Counted from the first letter of the stretch, positions 3,056 to 18,288 are shown. The stretch: 18,288 nucleotides of DNA from a virus (IMGVR_UViG_2703718771_000014); one strand, 5' to 3'. The notes: generated by a model from the sequence alone, not told the origin. Numbers and translations are program-made.

Positions 3056-6000
3056 TCAGATGCTCAGTGCTTCAAGACGACGAAGATCAAAGTCGTTTAA
3101 TTCGTCGGTATAACTTTCGGTAATCGGTGCTGGCCAGTTGTTTGTCTCCAGGGCTTCGTTTATCTGGCGTAGCGTCCGGCGATATTCCTGTCGACCAAGT
3201 TCCAGGAGTTCCTGCGAGGCTTCCACGACTGCCACCCAGTGATAGCCAGCATCTTTGTTGACGAAGATCCAGAAAAATTTGTCCAGGTTTGCCACATCGC
3301 AATACATTGCGGCGCTGAGGTGATAATCACGCTCAATAATTTCACGGTGCAGGCGATCTTTAAGTCGTTCCTGTCGCACATAACCGAGGCTGACTGACTT
3401 CACGTCAGCGCAAATGCTTTCGTATGGCAGCCGGATTTCGATATCAGGACGGACCCTGATTTCCAGCCCGGTTTCTTCATCAAACCCGAAATAGCTGATT
3501 TCAGATTTGCGATCCGGGTGGTTGAGTAGCCTTGCTGCATCGGTATTGTTTTGCAGTGCCGCGTGAATATTTTTTGCCTGTTCATACATCTCCGGACTGA
3601 TAAACGTTTTCCCGGCATTTTCTTCTTGCTGGCGTTTTTGCCAGTCCTCCAGTGTCACCAGTTCCGGGCGAATTTTCCGTGCGATTTCGGTTAATTGCTC
3701 TTTTGTGCCACTGATGTTGTAAGGCAAAGATTTAGCACGTTCTTTTTTTGCCAGTTCTGGGTCTACAGTTTCAATTTGATCCAGAAGCTGCTCCCGTGCT
3801 CCACTGGTTTTCAACAGAGGAGGGAGGCTTGCGTTGTATTCTTTAATACAGGCTTTCATTGCTGATGCTGTGTGTTTTTCCCCCTCAGGAATACGCCGAA
3901 ATTCCACCGGAAGCGAACCGTAAAGGATGCCTGTTTCTTCGGCCCCGGCACTTACAGACAGTGGCTGTATAAGAGTGCTGTTGTAGCTTTCGATCCACTC
4001 TTTCATCTGCTCTGGTGTCATCAGTGCTGGCAGACTGGCATTGTGTTTTTTAATGATGGCGATCAGTTCGCTAGAAGTAGTAACCACATATTCAGGAACC
4101 GGTACCGGAATGGCATATTCATCAGCGAATTTATCCGTTTCCAGAACATAGCTGTGAATGATCCGCCCACGCAGCAGTGCATCACTTTCCTCGTTCGGAA
4201 TAGTTCCGGCAATGTGCCGTCCGTGGTAATACATCAGGCTGATACGGGCATCCTTCAGCATCGTGCTGCTTATTCCGTTGGCGGAGTGATAAACCTCGTT
4301 CGGGAGGTTTTCATAGCGGCCAGGCTCGAAATATGACGGCCACATGATTTCAGTTGCTACAGGAGCTGACGCTTCACCAGTTTCATCACTGCAATCACGA
4401 TGCGGATCGCTGCCAGCATTCTCATTGTGCGGATGTTCAGCGCCTTCCATTTCCTCCGGATCATTTTCCTTAGCTTCAACCTGATTCTCTTCATCGAATG
4501 TTTCCTGGTATGTTGCGTCGCCCATCACCGCACCACAGTCAGGGCAGTTATCCCCGCCAGTCTGACCGCAGGCATTGCAGACTATTTCCGGTTTCTGTTG
4601 CACTACTGGCTCAGGTTGTTTCACATCCGGGCTGGTTTTTACAGTTTCTGGCGTGTTTTGTTTCGTTTCTGGCTGGTTCTGGTACACAGAGTCGCGAGTC
4701 TGGATCCCCTTTACCCATTTCGGATCGTTCGGGTCGCTAATTCCGTCAACAAATTCACCACGTGATGCAGCAAGCAATTTATCGGCATCGACAGGATTTT
4801 TTGATGGAATGTTTTTCCGGGCTTCATGGAGTTCTGCCCGCAGTTTCTGATATTTCGCATCAACAGAATTTACCTGTGACTGAGCATCCAGCGGCTGCGT
4901 GTCCTGATGATGTTCAGTTGCATCCGGTTCCACTGTTTCAGCCGTTGCCTGTTTATCTGCCATTGCGCAAGATGGTTGCGGTTTTTCTTCACCATCGTGT
5001 TTTCCTTCTTCTGTTACACGCTGCGGCATTGGGGCAGAGGAACGACCGCAGGCAATATCCACGATTTCCGGATCAGGGTTGGCATGATCGGTTTCAATCA
5101 GCACCTTGTTCAGATATTCAGTGACATGCGCAGGGATAACCTCGATCCCAATTGGTGCTTCTTTTACGGACGCAACCACGATGGCGCGGGAATAATCCAG
5201 CCCGCCAGGCATGGTGATGAATTTGTCGCGGAAAACAGAAAAGGGCGGTTTATTTTCAGAGATAATTTCCTCGACACGTTTAGCGTGTGCCGGATGAAGG
5301 TTATAAATGTCCACGTCCATTGAACGGGCCAGGACGCCAGTGGCTACGTCGCGCGCCAGTGACGTCAGATCGTGAACGAAACCTTCGCCGCGATCGGTGA
5401 GGTTCCCGCCGCCAGCATTAGCGCCGGAAGCCGTGCGCGTGATGCGTGAAACACGATTTCCTTTCATCCACTCTTTTGTCAGCAGACCACGATCGGTGTA
5501 GTCTGCGTCCAGGTATGCTTCGAAAAAAGCAGTCATCAGCCCCAGGCTTGAATTGCCTGGATTAGGGAAAACTCTGTCAGTATCACGCACCAGTTTGTGG
5601 AGATCGCGAATTTCCAGCGGGTCGAGCAGGCTGGTTTTGTGGGAAACAGCCAGGGCAGTAACAGCTGGTAGTTCTTCAGCTCGTGCAATGTGTAATGCCT
5701 GGAGTTCGTCGCGTGAAACGTGCGTTACCGGTTTTTCGCTGCCGTGTTGAGCAAGCCAGCGAATGGGCAGCTCCTGACCGGAAATCGGGAGTAGCATATT
5801 CTCCTCAATCTCCGTCATGTCTTCGCCATTAACATTGGTATTGTCAGTGCTGGCTGGTTTGTCCTGCGCAGAGGATGAGGGCGCGATAAATACCATTGTG
5901 ATGCCATCTTCCCCGCCTTTTTTGTAACGGTTGCAGAATTCCGTATCAAATACGCCCTCTGGTGGAAGGTCATCAACAACGGGCAAATTGACGCGAACAG

Positions 6001-8910: not shown

Positions 8911-9330
8911 TTACTCCGGTGGGGGATTATCTTTAAGCCTGCCTCTCAAATATTTTTCTACATACTCATCGATTTCTTTTAGCCGGACTTCAAATAGCTC
9001 AATCATTCGTTGTTGTTCTGAGCCAGGTAGCTGGTTAAACAACTCAAGAAGTTTTCGTTGGGATTCATTTAACCACAATTCAGAAGATTCCTGTTCTCCA
9101 AATAGGAGCTCAGGAGGAGATATGCCAAGTGCCTTTCCCAATACGACAGCGTCATGCACTCCAACATTTCTGCTGCCCGCCTCATAGTTACCTATACGCG
9201 ATTGCGTCCATCCGCAGATTTCAGCAAGTTTTCCTTGAGATAAACCAAGCTTCTGCCTGCGCTCTTTAAGACGCATTGCAATTTTGTCATTGAGCCTACT
9301 AGCGGCAATTTTTTCGTTTTCTTTTTCCAT
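8911..9330 (-). CDS. Prophage repressor, XRE-family HTH (CI/RacR analogue), 139 aa, no S24 peptidase domain
   Basis: Track ORF with an HTH segment (LGLSQGKLAEICGWTQSRIGNYEAG). It is divergent from the Cro-like gene across a 96-bp region carrying palindromes, followed by its own terminator. It is too short to carry a LexA-like autocleavage domain. Confidence 0.85.
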   Translation of the reverse strand: MEKENEKIAASRLNDKIAMRLKERRQKLGLSQGKLAEICGWTQSRIGNYEAGSRNVGVHDAVVLGKALGISPPELLFGEQESSELWLNESQRKLLELFNQLPGSEQQRMIELFEVRLKEIDEYVEKYLRGRLKDNPPPE

Positions 9331-13771: not shown

Positions 13772-14016
13772 ATTCATTACGATATGGGAATTCCCATATC
13801 GGGTAAAAACGGTTTGCGGTAAAGCGAGAGTTAAGTAGAATTGCTGCGGGTGCTTGAGGCTATCTGCCTCGGGCATGAACACCAACGGCAGATAGAGAAA
13901 AGCCCCAGTTAACATTACGCGTCCGGCAAGACGCTTAACATTAATCTGAGGCCATATCTATGCTCTACACACGTAGGTTAGCCTCTTACGTGCCGAAAGG
14001 CAAGGAGAAGCAGGCT

Positions 14017-14172
14017 ATGAAGCAGCAAAAGGCGATGCTAATCGCCCTGATCGTCATCTGTTTAACCGTCATTGTGACGGCACTGGTAACGAGGAAAGAC
14101 CTCTGCGAGGTACGAATCCGAACCGGCCAGACGGAGGTCGCTGTCTTCACAGCTTACGAACCTGAGGAGTAA
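14017..14172 (+). CDS. hokD: Hok/Gef-family type I toxin (HokD/RelF), 51 aa
   Basis: AGGAG lies 8 nt upstream of the ATG. The translation MKQQKAMLIALIVICLTVIVTALVTRKDLCEVRIRTGQTEVAVFTAYEPEE matches my recollection of K-12 HokD. The track ORF begins at an in-frame ATG at 13960. Confidence 0.9.
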   Translation: MKQQKAMLIALIVICLTVIVTALVTRKDLCEVRIRTGQTEVAVFTAYEPEE

Positions 14173-14730: not shown

Positions 14731-15330
14731 ATGGCGCATATACAACTGGTCAAACAAACCTCTTCCGGATTACTTCTCCCGGCGACACCGGAGAGTTGCG
14801 ATTTTTTGCATCAAATCAAAATAGGTGAGTGGATACACGCGGACTTTAAGCGAGTGCGTAACTACGCGTTCCACAAGCGTTTTTTCAAACTCCTGCAACT
14901 GGGATTCGATTACTGGACTCCGAACGGTGGGGCGATCACGCCTCGAGAACGAGAACTGGTGTCCGGTTTCGTTGAGTATCTGTGCGAATCAGTTGGTCGG
15001 GAACACACTCCAGCCCTGAGCGAAGCCGCAGAGCAATATCTGAATGCCGTTGCGACACGCAGAACCCGGGATACGGCATTGCTTAAGTCATTTGACGCTT
15101 TCCGCGAATGGGTAACCATTCAGGCCGGATTTTACACCGAACATTTTTATCCGGACGGTAGTCGTGGGCGCAGGGCAAAATCTATCGCATTTGCGAACAT
15201 GGACGAAACCGAGTTTCAGCAGGTTTATAAATCTGTACTGAATGTGCTGTGGAACTGGATCCTGTTCCGTAAATTTTCCTCTCCTGAGGAAGTCGAAAAT
15301 GTGGCCGCACAGTTACTGGAGTTTGCGTAA
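14731..15330 (+). CDS. Phage protein, DUF1367-like (YdfU-like), 199 aa
   Basis: Track ORF with GGAG upstream. Its stop overlaps the next start (TAATG). Confidence 0.7.
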   Translation: MAHIQLVKQTSSGLLLPATPESCDFLHQIKIGEWIHADFKRVRNYAFHKRFFKLLQLGFDYWTPNGGAITPRERELVSGFVEYLCESVGREHTPALSEAAEQYLNAVATRRTRDTALLKSFDAFREWVTIQAGFYTEHFYPDGSRGRRAKSIAFANMDETEFQQVYKSVLNVLWNWILFRKFSSPEEVENVAAQLLEFA

Positions 15331-15620
15331 TGGTGGATTTACGTAAAGCGGCGCGGGGGCAGATGTGCACCGTCAGAATTCCTGGCTACTGCAATCACAA
15401 TCCCGAAACTTCTGTGCTGGCGCATTACAGGCTGGCGGGGACGTGCGGAACAGCGACAAAACCACACGATATGCAGGCAGCGATTGCCTGCAGCTCATGC
15501 CACGATTTAATCGACGGGCGGGTAAAAACCAGCGATTACACCAAAGAAGAATTACGCCTGATGCATGCAGAAGGTGTTTTTCGTACGCAAGAAATCTGGA
15601 GAAAGGAAGGTTATTTATGA
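15330..15620 (+). CDS. Cys-rich small phage protein (putative zinc-binding, DUF1364-like), 96 aa
   Basis: Track ORF with conserved-looking cysteines (C13, C21, C39, C54, C57). Its stop overlaps the Q-like start (ATGA). Confidence 0.65.
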   Translation: MVDLRKAARGQMCTVRIPGYCNHNPETSVLAHYRLAGTCGTATKPHDMQAAIACSSCHDLIDGRVKTSDYTKEELRLMHAEGVFRTQEIWRKEGYL

Positions 15621-16171
15621 TTTACCCAACAAATACAGGCAAAAGCGGGGAACACCTTCGTCTCACCACGCTGGAAAGTGTCTGGATTCAGGGAAAACTG
15701 CGCATGTGGGGGCGCTGGTCGTATATTGGCGGCGGTAAGACGGGAAATATGTTCAACCAGTTGCTGACCTCTAAAAAGCTGACAAAAACGGCAATTAACG
15801 AGGCGCTCCGGAGGATGAAAAAAGCAGGTCTGGACAAACCTGAACTTGAGGCTTTTTTGCGGGATATGATCAACGGCAAGCAAAAAAGCTGGCTGGTGCA
15901 TTGTACTGATGCAGAGGCGTTATGCATTGATCGTGTGATTAGTGAAGTGCTGGCAGAACACCCAGGATTGATTTGTATCCTCCGGCAACGATATGAAGGG
16001 AGGGGGATGACTAAGCGAAAAATGGCTGAATTGCTGAATGATTCACACCCTGAGTGGTGTTACGCCACGTGCCGTAATCGCATAGATGCGTGGTTGAAAA
16101 TGGCAGAGTTTATGCTCTATCTGCCGATGCGTGATGCATTCTCTTCCGGGGATCTAAAAACCGTCTGTTGA
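15617..16171 (+). CDS. Putative late-gene antiterminator Q-like protein, 184 aa
   Basis: The ATG at 15617 is preceded by AGGAAGG. The 5' part of track ORF 15365..16171 is an out-of-frame overlap. The gene ends within a near-consensus promoter that is followed by a terminator, the canonical Q context. Confidence 0.55.
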   Translation: MIYPTNTGKSGEHLRLTTLESVWIQGKLRMWGRWSYIGGGKTGNMFNQLLTSKKLTKTAINEALRRMKKAGLDKPELEAFLRDMINGKQKSWLVHCTDAEALCIDRVISEVLAEHPGLICILRQRYEGRGMTKRKMAELLNDSHPEWCYATCRNRIDAWLKMAEFMLYLPMRDAFSSGDLKTVC

Positions 16172-16197
16172 CTCAATCTGTTATCCGGGGCTATATT
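16168..16197 (+). promoter_or_regulatory. Late promoter candidate (PR'-like): TTGACT-18-TATATT
   Basis: TTGACT at 16168..16173 overlaps the Q-like stop codon. TATATT at 16192..16197. A hairpin (CGCCAG-caaaat-CTGGCG) lies just downstream. Confidence 0.6.
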
Positions 16198-16258
16198 CCT
16201 CACGCGCCAGCAAAATCTGGCGTCGGGATTGGAACCCCGGATAGAGACCGCGACAGAC

Positions 16259-16280
16259 ACACGCCGCGAGCGTGTTTTTT
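16259..16280 (+). terminator. Intrinsic terminator (tR'-like) about 70 nt downstream of the late promoter
   Basis: ACACGC-CGCGA-GCGTGT followed by TTTTTT. Confidence 0.7.
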
Positions 16281-16441
16281 ATTGTCGTATGCACGCGCAC
16301 ATCTGAATTATGGTGGGGCGCATGGGGGAGCTGAAAAGCTCGCCGGTCGGTTTCCCGGTAGTTCCAACCCTGTGCGTCTCACCACCCGATGATTGGAACC
16401 TGACGGTGGTGATAGTTTAGAAACCACCAGAGGGCGTCATT

Positions 16442-16999
16442 ATGACAACTCAAATTTCTGTTGAAACTCTCTCCCCGATCACCCATAACCGGATTCCTGT
16501 TATTACCACCGAACTTTTGGCGCAGCTTTACGGCACTGAGCCGGTGCGTATTCGCCAGAATCATCATGAGAACAAAGTACGCTTCGTTGAAGGGAAACAC
16601 TTTTTCAAAGTTGTTGGTAATGACCTTAAAGAATTGCGGGTAGCTTTAAACTACTCACAAAATCCCATCTCTCCCAAAGCCCGCTCCCTTATCCTCTGGA
16701 CAGAACGCGGAGCAGCCCGCCACGCAAAAATGCTCGAAACCGATCAGGCGTGGGATGTGTTCGAAAAACTGGAAGACTGCTATTTCAGTCAAAAGGATCC
16801 GTCAGCGCCAGTTGCATGCCAGAAAAGTTACGACACGCGAGTTCTCTGTTATCAGCGAGGCGGTGTCACTGTTTCCACAATTCAGTTGCGGGATGATGAT
16901 ATTGTTATTTCCCTTGAGTCATGGCTGGAACTGGCGAGAGCCAATGGTTGGTTTGTTGTTCGCAGAGATAAACTGGTGGAAAGGCTGATGCAGCTTTAA
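16442..16999 (+). CDS. ORF6N-domain antirepressor-like protein, 185 aa
   Basis: Track ORF. The N-terminal motif LAQLYGTEPVRIRQNHHENKVRFVEGKHFFKV resembles the ORF6N consensus as I recall it. It is the first gene after the late promoter and terminator. Confidence 0.65.
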   Translation: MTTQISVETLSPITHNRIPVITTELLAQLYGTEPVRIRQNHHENKVRFVEGKHFFKVVGNDLKELRVALNYSQNPISPKARSLILWTERGAARHAKMLETDQAWDVFEKLEDCYFSQKDPSAPVACQKSYDTRVLCYQRGGVTVSTIQLRDDDIVISLESWLELARANGWFVVRRDKLVERLMQL

Positions 17000-17097
17000 A
17001 AAAGTTCTTGCAATTTTAGCCATAAACTGCTTCAATTCCGGTACGCTTCGCAAAGCTGTATCGCGAGGCGAAACGCAAGTTTTTTTCGCACAAGGAA

Positions 17098-17119
17098 GCC
17101 ACCGGAAGGTGGTTTTTTT
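17098..17119 (+). terminator. Intrinsic terminator after the ORF6N gene
   Basis: GCCACC-GGAA-GGTGGT followed by TTTTTTT. A second hairpin with a T run lies just upstream at about 17060..17090. Confidence 0.75.
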
Positions 17120-17242
17120 GTGTCCGTAATATACAGCAGCGCAATAAATTCGCTGGTGGTTATTAATACCGGTCTTTCAACTTGCTGGCTTTTTCGACAA
17201 GAGTTATTGGTATGTCACGTTAACCGGAAAAGGGAAAAAGAC

Positions 17243-17440
17243 ATGCTAAAACAGCAGGATATGACAGAAACCGCCAGAGTGGTGTTTAATGAATTAAGCG
17301 TTACCGAACCGGCGACAGTCGGGGAGATTGCGCAGAATACTTACCTTTCACGCGAACGCTGCCAGTTAATACTGACCCAGCTGGTTATGGCGGGTCTGGC
17401 AGACTATCAGTGCGGTTGTTACAGACGCATTCAGTCCTGA
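17243..17440 (+). CDS. Hypothetical small winged-helix-like protein, 65 aa from the internal ATG
   Basis: Track ORF 17120..17440. The N-terminal 41 codons read like non-coding sequence. The ATG at 17243 has only a weak SD. Confidence 0.45.
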   Translation: MLKQQDMTETARVVFNELSVTEPATVGEIAQNTYLSRERCQLILTQLVMAGLADYQCGCYRRIQS

Positions 17441-17518
17441 AGGCTTTTTATTTGTGGTAAATGGGCGGCTGGTGGGGGGGCGGCACCTGTCAGTCCTTTG
17501 CTTATGTGTTGATGATAA

Positions 17519-17549
17519 TTTACCTTTTGGGGCTATAATTGAGCTAACC
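17519..17549 (+). promoter_or_regulatory. Candidate promoter for the AraC-family gene (TTGATG-19-TATAAT)
   Basis: A perfect -10 hexamer at 17544..17549 in an A+T-rich context. The 19-nt spacer is longer than optimal. Confidence 0.4.
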
Positions 17550-17574
17550 AATTGCTAATGAAAGTAAAATTATA

Positions 17575-18288
17575 ATGGCTGTTGTCTGTTCAGTTATCAT
17601 GGTTTGCTCCCCAATTAATATTTTTCTTGAAAAGGATACGTTGTCACTTAAGCCAGGCTCAGTCGTTCTGGCCACCAAATGCATCAGGGAGCTTTTCCTT
17701 ATGCATTATGGCAAAGTTAAAATTGTCGATATAAGCGAATCCGTCGTAAGTCAATATCTGGAAAGTCAGCATAAGCTGACGAGGACTCGTCTGACTGACA
17801 TTCCGCTTTACCTGTTGCTGGAACCCAACAACCCTGCGTTGGCTGCGGCTTTAATTACCAGCCAGGGATTTTCCGGAGAGGTCACGGATATGTTTCTTAT
17901 GATGGCCTGCCTGTCTCTGTTTGAAACAGATGAACGGATGTCATTGTTTTTAAGTGGATGTTTATCCAGCATAAGTGCCAAAGTCAGGGCGATAATTCAG
18001 ACAGATATATCAGCAAGCTGGACGCTTGGTGCGATTGCTCTACAGTTGCATATGAGTGAGAGTTTGTTAAAGACAAAACTGAAAAATGAAGGGGGCATGT
18101 TCAGTCGCTTGTTGCTGGAAGAGCGGATGCGTGTTGCTGTAAATATGTTATGTTCCCGGCATGGATATGGACAGGCTATAGCAGAAAAATGCGGTTATTC
18201 AAGCAGGTCCTACTTTATTTCTGTATTTCACCGCTATTATGGCTTCCCGCCAGACAGATATGTATCCAGGCAAGGGCTTGATTATTGA
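17575..18288 (+). CDS. AraC/XylS-family transcriptional regulator, AppY/EnvY-like, 237 aa
   Basis: Track ORF. The C-terminal dual HTH region (...LLKTKLKNEGG...AEKCGYSSRSYFISVFHRYYGFPP) and the N-terminus (MAVVCSVIMVCSP...KVKIVDI) resemble K-12 AppY and EnvY as I recall them. The gene is A+T-rich and its stop is at the window end. Confidence 0.85.
   Translation: MAVVCSVIMVCSPINIFLEKDTLSLKPGSVVLATKCIRELFLMHYGKVKIVDISESVVSQYLESQHKLTRTRLTDIPLYLLLEPNNPALAAALITSQGFSGEVTDMFLMMACLSLFETDERMSLFLSGCLSSISAKVRAIIQTDISASWTLGAIALQLHMSESLLKTKLKNEGGMFSRLLLEERMRVAVNMLCSRHGYGQAIAEKCGYSSRSYFISVFHRYYGFPPDRYVSRQGLDY

Follow-up and report, generated by a model that had tools for sequence, protein, structure and literature searches.

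In the immI region of phages P1 and P7, which comprises c4, icd, and ant, the C4 RNA and its targets derive from one transcript, from which C4 is cleaved, and the specificity that underlies P1/P7 heteroimmunity is set by a few bases at the b sites. The interval between the Q antiterminator gene and the lysis genes is a known cargo slot, and in the Stx2 phage VT2-Sakai it holds stx. Reporter assays with Gifsy-1 have established that the isrK promoter drives isrK-orf45-anrP (PMC4825925). In that prophage the IsrK RNA acts in trans to activate translation of the antirepressor, and the antirepressor then induces the prophage (Hershko-Shalev et al. 2016, PMC4825925). PsrB, an AraC-like regulator encoded in EHEC, is an activator of gadE and hdeA, through which it indirectly represses type III secretion (reviewed in PMC10877973 and PMC8565820).

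The window analyzed here is a stretch of 18,288 nucleotides of viral DNA, and all features described below lie on its plus strand. Examination of the region that follows its Q-like gene revealed two already known prophage add-ons, an antirepressor cassette of the IsrK/C4/AnrP type and PsrB. We consider it highly probable that positions 16168-16999, 17008-17119, and 17151-18288 form a three-unit mosaic in an E. coli lambdoid prophage located at the Rac site. This reading is carried by sequence and structure homology, covariation, and gene order, from which IsrK, C4, and Ant activity in this prophage, the late promoter, and Q readthrough into psrB are predicted. By sequence comparison, the relatives of 16168-16791 are Gifsy-1 and VT2-Sakai, and those of 17111-18288 are Sakai Sp4 and EDL933 OI-57. 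The ORF6N gene, the small ORF, and the AraC gene, treated in the initial annotation as a single cassette, instead belong to two independent mosaics with different relatives. Every gene and motif enumerated in that annotation is present where it had been placed; the list had passed over the C4-type RNA (16306-16389), an ORF of 36 codons, and a conserved element located at 17008-17072.

The Q-like antiterminator gene (15617-16171) encodes a member of the DUF1133 family (Pfam, 358 bits) that is a distant relative of the phage 21 Q protein. It scored 27.5 bits against Phage_antitermQ (cut-off 26), matched the PHROG termed anti-termination protein Q-like, and had as its closest solved structures the Q21 chains 6P18 and 6JNX (E ~0.002). 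The designation of DUF1133 proteins as Q is a putative one, made by remote homology. We surveyed 80 related prophage loci with a DUF1133 Q, and the ant cassette was found in 31 of these and was missing from the other 49.

Directly after this gene is a promoter (16168-16197) having the -35 hexamer TTGACT, an 18-nt spacer, and the -10 hexamer TATATT, with the Q stop codon falling within the -35 hexamer. A simple promoter scan returned 3 sites versus 3.3 expected, and so by itself was not above chance. The sequence aligned with the isrK promoters of Gifsy-1 and VT2-Sakai with scattered substitutions only. The 77-nt RNA encoded downstream (16204-16280) matched the full isrK model of Rfam, positions 1-77 (RF01394, 77.5 bits; gathering score 50). 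Its two 5' hairpins (16204-16239) bear the a1 and b1 sites and matched the c4-a1b1 family (RF03163, 50.1 bits; gathering score 46.7), and they are followed by an intrinsic terminator at 16259-16280. The covariance-model matches to isrK, C4, and c4-a1b1 had E values from 3e-16 to 5e-11, far beyond chance, and Gifsy-1 and O157 strain Anguil show all three in identical order.

The promoter and terminator noted earlier at 16168-16280 are therefore both present. They had been interpreted as a PR'/tR' unit loaded by Q, through whose readthrough the ORF6N, small ORF, and AraC genes would be expressed as one cargo cassette. This arrangement is suggested by the promoter starting at the Q stop codon and the terminator following ~60 nt on, within ~100 nt of the Q gene, as at lambda PR', and by the use of the Q-lysis slot for cargo such as stx in VT2-Sakai. 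However, Q proteins are promoter-specific, and in VT2-Sakai the same promoter, RNA, and terminator occur within the nin region, 2.4 kb before Q; in Gifsy-1 the promoter and RNA adjoin an unrelated Q82-type protein. Because of these two placements and the absence of the unit from 49 of the 80 DUF1133-Q loci, 16168-16280 is not a Q-specific PR'/tR'. The RNA moreover belongs to a curated small RNA family with a different established role, and the mosaic relatives of the three genes differ. We regard the PR'/tR' interpretation as very unlikely and assign 16168-16280 as the isrK gene heading the antirepressor cassette.

A dual use might also be envisioned for those prophages that share the Q C-terminus of the window. 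There, the isrK promoter would have been recruited to serve as an extra Q-loading site, and Q would boost readthrough into ant in a positive feedback. The last ~36 codons of the Q gene (16062-16167) are a variant found only with the isrK cassette (31 of 31 loci), the -35 hexamer includes the Q stop codon, and IsrK, AnrP, and AntQ of Gifsy-1 make up one regulatory circuit. Such co-occurrence can, however, be plain linkage arising from one recombination event with its junction at 16061, the point inside the Q-like gene at which homology to Sakai Sp10 ends, and the sampled loci are closely related. Prophages whose Q is unrelated or distant also have the same promoter sequence, and all variant-Q loci retain the conserved post-Q core downstream. 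Dual use appears very unlikely to us.

Following isrK is a C4-type structured antisense RNA at 16306-16389 (Rfam RF01695, 71 bits; gathering score 45), the counterpart of STnc1160/orf45' in Gifsy-1. Analysis with RNAalifold gave stems of 27 pairs, of which 7 had compensatory changes and none were broken. Its pairing sites are an exposed a' loop (16345-16358) and a b' stretch (16358-16370). The same segment has an acceptor-like stem, an ACCA end, and an alignment with ileZ of Sp10, and was considered as a tRNA or tRNA remnant; ARAGORN returned nothing for it, and it is the C4 RNA. Targets for the pairing sites are found in the leader of the ant mRNA (16391-16434), with b2 at 16391-16400, a2 at 16419-16425, and the Shine-Dalgarno sequence AGAGGG at 16429-16434.

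Whole-molecule RNA duplex energies for cognate versus non-cognate C4 and target pairs were uninformative since they ignore internal structure, and we therefore relied upon aligned covariation to assess pairing. The b1, b', and b2 sites co-vary and fall into three classes. Two of these read GGCGT/ACGCC/GGCGT and GGAAC/GTTCC/GGAAC, and the third carries a matching insertion of one base at each of the sites. In the aligned relatives a' and a2 also change in concert. No variation is seen in the a1 loop of IsrK, although a' varies, and clear pairing between IsrK and C4 is found only at the b sites.

Inside the C4 region is an upstream ORF of 36 codons (16310-16420), within the range of 27 to 45 codons seen among relatives. 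Counted from the inferred transcription start, its AUG codons are at +107 and +119, as in orf45 of Gifsy-1. The ORF ends 21 nt short of the ant ATG, whereas the Gifsy-1 counterpart overlaps the start of ant, and because of this lack of overlap translational coupling to ant may differ from that in Gifsy-1 or work less well.

The gene that follows (16442-16999) was described initially as antirepressor-like with an ORF6N domain, and this description was borne out. The product has an N-terminal ORF6N domain (Pfam, 71.8 bits) and a variable C-terminal domain, matched the PHROG anti-repressor family over its full length with 312 bits, and is 56% identical to AnrP of Gifsy-1 (STM2616) from end to end over 185 residues. 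We designate it ant, an AnrP-type antirepressor gene. No Rfam match to isrJ was obtained in the window after ant, whereas Gifsy-1 does give one.

Homology and covariation identify 16168-16999 as an antirepressor switch complete in itself, of the type seen in Gifsy-1 isrK-orf45-anrP and with a build like that of P1 immI, for which we propose the following workings. Transcription from its own sigma-70 promoter would yield the 77-nt IsrK RNA ending at the intrinsic terminator, with part of the transcripts passing the terminator into the C4-type RNA with its upstream ORF and then into ant. In the long RNA, the b' and a' stretches of C4 could pair either with b1, which is part of IsrK, or with the b2 and a2 sites that immediately precede the ribosome site of ant, and such pairing would prevent translation of ant. 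Free IsrK, working in trans, would then compete for b' and open the leader, allowing the antirepressor to be made. The antirepressor would in turn inactivate the prophage repressor, with the result that the early genes and Q are turned on.

At least three b-site classes exist. Class I is common to the Stx2 phage VT2-Sakai and many DUF1133-Q prophages, and the prophage studied here is of class II. The three co-varying specificity classes of IsrK and C4 provide a ready system in which prophage crosstalk at the RNA level could be examined. We put forward, as a speculation that is probably wrong in its full form, that the b-site variants of IsrK may serve as an RNA address code between co-resident prophages, including class-specific cross-induction. 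If so, the IsrK of one prophage would trigger synthesis of the antirepressor solely in prophages sharing its class, possibly including Stx phages. A class II chain leading from IsrK to Ant, to Q, and to the late promoter would then co-express PsrB in this prophage, and stress-triggered induction would be tied to acid resistance and to control of type III secretion.

Downstream of ant is the conserved post-Q element (17008-17072), a candidate late promoter whose core was present in 79 of the 80 DUF1133-Q loci. It consists of TTGCAA (17008-17013), a 17-nt spacer, TTCAAT (17031-17036), the -10-like sequence TACGCT (17042-17047), and an invariant block extending to 17072. The core lies exactly 9 nt past the Q stop codon in the 49 loci without isrK, and is kept downstream in the loci bearing the cassette as well. 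The pattern TTGNNN, 17 nt, and TTCAAT followed by TA(C/T/A)GCT is conserved in three sequence contexts, and the element is 88% identical to the post-Q region of Sakai Sp10. As a -10 hexamer TTCAAT is poor, since its second position is not the conserved A, and it was passed over by the consensus scan. The element is followed by the two terminators reported earlier after the ORF6N gene, and these were confirmed as intrinsic hairpins with U runs at 17073-17086 and 17098-17119 (folding energy of 17073-17119, -30.9 kcal/mol; z = -4.0). Relatives have at this place a single tR'-like terminator, CCCGC...GCGGG-T7, and then tRNA genes and lysis genes.

We view 17008-17072 as a better candidate for the late promoter than 16168-16280. 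Most likely 17008-17119 comprises the real late promoter, here a putative assignment, together with the Q-loading region and terminators. The 17000-17120 interval was also considered as a source of HnrS, a multicopy 66-nt small RNA of prophages Sp9, Sp10, and Sp12 (PMC13502914). The 15-mer of Sp10 complementary to the end of mazF lies near L002 25995 on the minus strand, after Rz and far from Q, and this candidate was rejected.

The third unit begins with a conserved leader (17151-17242) preceding a gene for a small protein of 65 residues (17243-17440), named as TrmB family by NCBI and falling into PHROG 331, of unknown function. The ORF noted in the initial annotation is present; its label as winged-helix was weakly supported. 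The match to TrmB was below the cut-off (E 0.002), and the AlphaFold model (pLDDT 85.7) had winged-helix domains for all of its top structural matches, each with E ~0.5. The protein is probably a winged-helix DNA binder. Residues 1-49 are identical at 48 of 49 positions to Sakai ECs_1086, with the C-termini diverging, and a longer reading of 106 residues from the GTG at 17120 outscored the 65-residue reading against PHROG 331.

The final gene of the window, ending at its last nucleotide, is an AraC/XylS family regulator (17575-18288). Its C-terminal double helix-turn-helix was detected with both HTH_AraC (50.3 bits) and HTH_18 (39.8 bits) of Pfam. The protein is identical at 235 of 237 residues (99%) to the product of the EDL933 gene at 1,905,274-1,905,987, which is inside OI-57 by the coordinates used for psrB identification (PMC8565820, PMC10877973), and is 90% identical to Sakai ECs_1087. 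The OI-57 copy differs from ECs_1087 by 10%, matching the published divergence of PsrA and PsrB. We equated the EDL933 gene with z2104 through the OI-57 coordinates of the review and this 90% identity relation, rather than by locus tag. The naming of psrA differs with the source, being ecs1087 in Sp4 (PMC13502914) or z1789 in OI-50 (PMC8565820, PMC10877973). On homology grounds the gene is psrB, encoding prophage-encoded secretion regulator B.

It had been described as an AppY/EnvY-like AraC regulator. The protein does belong to the AppY/YdeO/GadX branch and is host-directed, but it is PsrB and not an uncharacterized AppY-like gene. E. coli K-12 AppY and EnvY are of the same AraC subfamily; AppY shares 29% identity with PsrB from end to end, N-terminal motif included, and EnvY shares 40% across the C-terminal 138 residues. 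YdeO is the best NCBIfam model for PsrB, but with only 108 bits compared to the equivalog cut-off of 348. By these scores the protein is not an equivalog of YdeO or AppY, and its true ortholog is PsrB.

The possible promoter proposed earlier for this gene proved to be conserved. It lies at 17512-17539 with a perfect -10 hexamer TATAAT (17534-17539), and no differences in this stretch were found among the window, EDL933 psrB, Sakai Sp4 psrA, and O157 strain Anguil. There is a real chance, if short of even, that psrB is expressed from this candidate promoter only, under H-NS/Hha silencing and host signals, with induction and Q adding nothing that matters. The invariance of the promoter across psrA and psrB contexts with different Q types is consistent with this, as is the response of psrA to the Hha-targeting small RNA HnrS (PMC13502914). 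Two terminators also separate the candidate late promoter from psrB, and inspection of the sequence past the small ORF revealed a possible terminator-like sequence (17431-17453). On the other hand, the psr block in relatives is always just past the tR'-like terminator and before the tRNA genes, and a gene located behind a late promoter and ahead of the lysis genes is ordinarily transcribed by polymerase that Q has modified, stx being an example. Coupling of psrB to Q readthrough from the candidate promoter at 17008-17047 is therefore plausible, predicted from position.

The Q-to-lysis interval had been described as an accessory-gene slot without lysis genes next to the AraC gene, and both points agree with the relatives. 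As well as the ant cassette in 31 of 80 loci, the block of small ORF and AraC gene occurred in 2 of 20 loci having the cassette and sufficient flank, and the order small ORF, psr, tRNA is shared by Sakai Sp4 and EDL933. The window stops at the AraC stop codon; in close relatives extending further downstream, holin and lysozyme genes begin ~3.7 kb past the AraC gene. The A+T-richness attributed to this gene was correct in direction and modest in degree, with 38-46% GC versus ~48-52% in the flanks.

Overall, these results represent known biology with a corrected annotation and leave current understanding unchanged. A consensus promoter and terminator directly after a Q gene need not be PR'/tR', and here they belong to an antirepressor-gating small RNA gene. 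For EHEC, the arrangement places both an induction switch and a probable late promoter upstream of PsrB, at a distance of a few hundred bases.

Of the known systems, Gifsy-1 has the same order of Q gene, isrK, C4-like RNA with upstream ORF, and ORF6N antirepressor, with 77% nucleotide identity across 16168-16791 and positional conservation of the promoter, inferred start, and terminator. It differs in having an unrelated Q, in the b sites (GGAAC versus GGCGT) and the a' site, in an upstream ORF of 45 rather than 36 codons that overlaps the antirepressor start, and in carrying isrJ after anrP where the post-Q core is found here. The immI region of P1 and P7 likewise has a C4-family RNA (Rfam clan CL00128) with a1/b1 upstream and a2/b2 at the downstream ribosome site. 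In the window, however, the a1/b1 part is terminated and is predicted to be a free activating small RNA, IsrK, beyond a mere leader segment; icd is absent, and the element is a lambdoid prophage. PsrB (z2104, OI-57), PsrA, and PatE of EHEC O157:H7 are similarly AraC-like, with the flanking small ORF, promoter, and tRNA genes shared. In EDL933 the psr block directly follows Q, core, and tR', while here isrK-ant separates Q from the core and a different terminator is present. Finally, lambda and the Stx phages also produce a short terminated RNA (6S, StxS) from PR' to tR' right after Q, and have tRNA and accessory genes between this RNA and the holin and endolysin genes. The RNA at 16204-16280 is instead part of the antirepressor cassette, and 17008-17119 is the region of this prophage that likely corresponds to PR'/tR'.

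The window is an E. coli prophage of the lambdoid type, located at the Rac site, in which intR and recET are followed by replication genes, DUF1367, YbcO, and a Q-like gene, and it is 94 to 97% identical to prophages of EHEC O157, O145, and O111. Upstream of the DUF1367 gene is a 70-aa ORF (13960-14172) that encodes a hydrophobic core and shares its relative position with a gene annotated Hok/Gef in a related O157 prophage; the likeness is positional. On the minus strand, the ORF at 8911-9330 is a candidate for the prophage repressor and carries that annotation in relatives. Every ORF named in the initial annotation was found, namely the DUF1133 Q-like gene (15617-16171), an ORF6N gene (16442-16999), a 65-aa small ORF (17243-17440), and an AraC-family gene (17575-18288). 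The Q-like product has a weak Phage_antitermQ score; among solved structures, Q21 chains are its best relatives. Its TGA stop (16169-16171) is embedded in a TTGAC motif (within 16168-16173), as it is in Sakai Sp10 (L002, 19563-19568), and this motif is common to the two prophages despite unrelated downstream sequences. The interval beyond the Q-like gene very probably consists of an IsrK/C4/Ant induction switch, then a conserved post-Q element, and then a block comprising the small ORF and psrB. The complete 15300-18288 arrangement was present, at a coverage of at least 80%, in 35 of 5,426 complete E. coli genomes.

Consensus scans by themselves performed no better than on shuffled sequence, with 3 promoter-like sites versus 3.3 expected. 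The promoter TTGACT-18-TATATT (16168-16197) and the terminator (16259-16280) reported after the Q-like gene are real, as are the two terminator hairpins 3' of the ORF6N gene. An Rfam scan of the window returned three matches, all exceeding the curated thresholds: isrK at 16204-16280 (77.5 bits versus a gathering score of 50), C4 antisense RNA at 16306-16389 (71 bits versus 45), and the c4-a1b1 target motif at 16191-16243 (50.1 bits versus 46.7). Gifsy-1 has the same three matches in identical order between its Q gene and STM2616 and can be aligned to the window from the -35 hexamer through the start of ant, the AnrP-type antirepressor gene. The AUGs of the upstream ORF are at +107 and +119 in the window as in Gifsy-1, and the ORF6N protein is 56% identical to Gifsy-1 AnrP from end to end. 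Unlike its Gifsy-1 counterpart, the upstream ORF of the window is 36 codons long and stops 21 nt short of the ant ATG. Relatives have versions of 27 to 45 codons, so the amino-acid sequence of this ORF is probably not the conserved feature. The Gifsy-1 locus has been dissected experimentally; its isrK promoter gives rise to a 77-nt terminated sRNA and also to a readthrough isrK-orf45-anrP mRNA that is untranslated. When IsrK acts in trans, the ribosome site of orf45 is opened and AnrP is produced by coupling; AnrP in turn increases upstream antiterminator expression and triggers prophage induction (PMC4825925).

The initial annotation had taken 16168-16280 to be a PR'/tR'-like unit of this Q, a reading that the distribution of the cassette (isrK, C4 RNA, upstream ORF, and ant; 16168-16999) contradicts, as the same cassette occurs elsewhere with other Q types and is absent from many loci. 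The VT2-Sakai copy, 84% identical, lies between nin60 and roi within the nin region, and the Q of that phage and its stx late region come 2.4 kb further downstream; the Gifsy-1 copy adjoins a Q82-type protein having no detectable similarity to the Q of the window. Of 80 viral contigs that encode a close relative of the window Q, 49 have no cassette. Each Q protein acts specifically at its own promoter; a promoter that occurs with several Q types, and that some loci of a single Q type lack, is therefore not the Q-loading site.

Downstream of ant is the post-Q element, a candidate late promoter (17008-17072) followed by terminators (17073-17119). Its 49-nt core (17024-17072) was present in 79 of 80 DUF1133 Q loci (L008-L087), and the sole locus without it is cut off by its own contig end. 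Two GCTTC repeats are located 16 nt apart within the core. In all 49 cassette-free loci, the core begins exactly 9 nt past the Q stop; in the 30 cassette-bearing loci, this distance is 847-1057 nt. In Sakai Sp10 and EDL933, the core is directly 3' of Q and precedes a strong terminator, tRNAs, and late genes; compared to Sp10, the window has the end of Q replaced and the cassette inserted (16062-16997) between Q and the post-Q element. The arrangement TTGNNN-17-TTCAAT is kept across three different upstream contexts with a -10-like TA(C/T/A)GCT after it, and by sequence the element is similar to a late promoter that carries a promoter-proximal pause element. Since the -10 is weak, the late-promoter assignment is one that we infer, with moderate confidence. 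The core is probably the late promoter and Q-loading region of the DUF1133 Q family.

The region 17111-18288 is 93.7% identical to Sakai Sp4 (ECs_1086 and ECs_1087), and the AraC-family protein is 90% identical to ECs_1087, which has been named psrA (PMC13502914). The protein is identical at 235 of 237 residues to the product of an EDL933 gene at 1,905,274-1,905,987, itself 90% identical to ECs_1087 and falling inside OI-57 (1,849,324-1,929,825). OI-57 encodes PsrB (z2104), described in reviews as 90% identical to PsrA (PMC8565820, PMC10877973). Because of the match inside OI-57 and the 90% PsrA/PsrB relation, we filed the gene of the window as psrB. Reviews describe PsrB as binding to the promoters of hdeA and gadE, increasing acid resistance, and repressing type III secretion indirectly (PMC10877973, PMC8565820). 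The earlier AppY/EnvY-like label is fair at the subfamily level (29% identity to AppY over the full length and 40% to EnvY at the C-terminus), the gene itself being filed as psrB; the best model for the protein was YdeO, with a score far below the cut-off. Upstream of psrB is a perfect TATAAT promoter that is invariant in psrA and psrB contexts. The isrK promoter (16187-16197) and the psrB promoter (17529-17539) have in common the string GGGGCTATA(T/A)T around the -10, which may be a coincidence. The small-ORF and psrB block is accessory and was found in 2 of the 20 cassette-bearing loci having enough flank. A PsrB paralog, 37% identical (4770-5516 of the DUF1133 Q locus L083), is found in the same slot of other DUF1133-Q prophages, and the slot after Q and the core seems to repeatedly collect regulators of PsrB's subfamily. 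The L083 regulator is directly after Q, the core, and a terminator, and before the lysis genes.

The small ORF belongs to a family widespread in Enterobacteriaceae prophages (NCBI name TrmB family; PHROG 331). The top structural matches to its AlphaFold model (pLDDT 85.7) were all winged-helix domains, none of them statistically significant; thus, the winged-helix fold is likely but not proven. A 106-aa reading from GTG 17120 (17120-17440) scored 153 bits against PHROG 331, versus 127 bits for the 65-aa form, which makes it uncertain where the small gene truly starts. A conserved leader (CGCTGGTGGTT...GGTCTTTC...; 17151-17242) follows the tR'-like terminator in many prophages and is kept even where the downstream gene differs; it could be an RNA element instead of coding sequence.

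The lysis genes, as first noted, are not adjacent to Q. In the closest complete relatives, psrB is followed by tRNA-Ile, one or two tRNA-Arg, TerB, DUF3927, and a SASA esterase, and then by holin, lysozyme, an antirepressor-domain protein, and spanin, with holin starting approximately 3.7 kb after psrB and 5.9 kb after Q. In relatives, the stretch that follows the tRNAs contains STnc100 and AgvB, an anti-sRNA (Rfam 143-146 and 96.5 bits; L001 16068-16323 and, in Sp10, L002 20728-20982), and regulatory RNAs are densely packed between Q and the lysis genes of these prophages. HnrS is a published sRNA marked by a 15-mer complementary to the mazF end (PMC13502914). This 15-mer is found after the Rz gene of Sp10 (L002, about 25995, minus strand), which places HnrS in the late region and outside the studied interval. 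The position of psrB favours induction raising PsrB via Q readthrough. However, psrB has a promoter of its own, terminators intervene, and Hha-linked control is reported for psrA (PMC13502914); these features suggest that independent psrB expression dominates in lysogens.

Nine distinct cassette versions from the fetched loci made up the covariation set and fell into three classes, in each of which b1 in IsrK, b' in C4, and b2 before ant (16227-16236, 16358-16370, and 16391-16400 in the window) change together. Class I has GGCGT/ACGCC/GGCGT (b1/b'/b2) and is found in Gifsy-1, VT2-Sakai, and many prophages, while class II, that of the window, has GGAAC/GTTCC/GGAAC. Class III, found in O157 strain Anguil and L017, has an extra A, T, and A at the three sites, a matching one-base insertion. 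The loci compared for class included L001 (12905-13150), L003 (34131-34316), and L004 (6001-6285). Class I is common to many non-Stx prophages and to VT2-Sakai, an Stx2 phage. Changes in the a' loop are matched by changes in a2, which immediately precedes the Shine-Dalgarno sequence of ant, and 7 of the 27 pairs in the C4 stems are compensatory, with none broken. The b-site and a'/a2 covariation and the compensatory C4 pairs provide evidence that the cassette RNAs are under selection.

Both functional units have already been published, and the composite is present in many sequenced EHEC genomes; what is new is incremental: the promoter assignment is corrected, the cassette falls into three specificity classes, and DUF1133 Q genes have a conserved partner element. 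Heteroimmunity in phages P1 and P7 is defined by C4 specificity, and the C4 logic of the window is that of their immI region.
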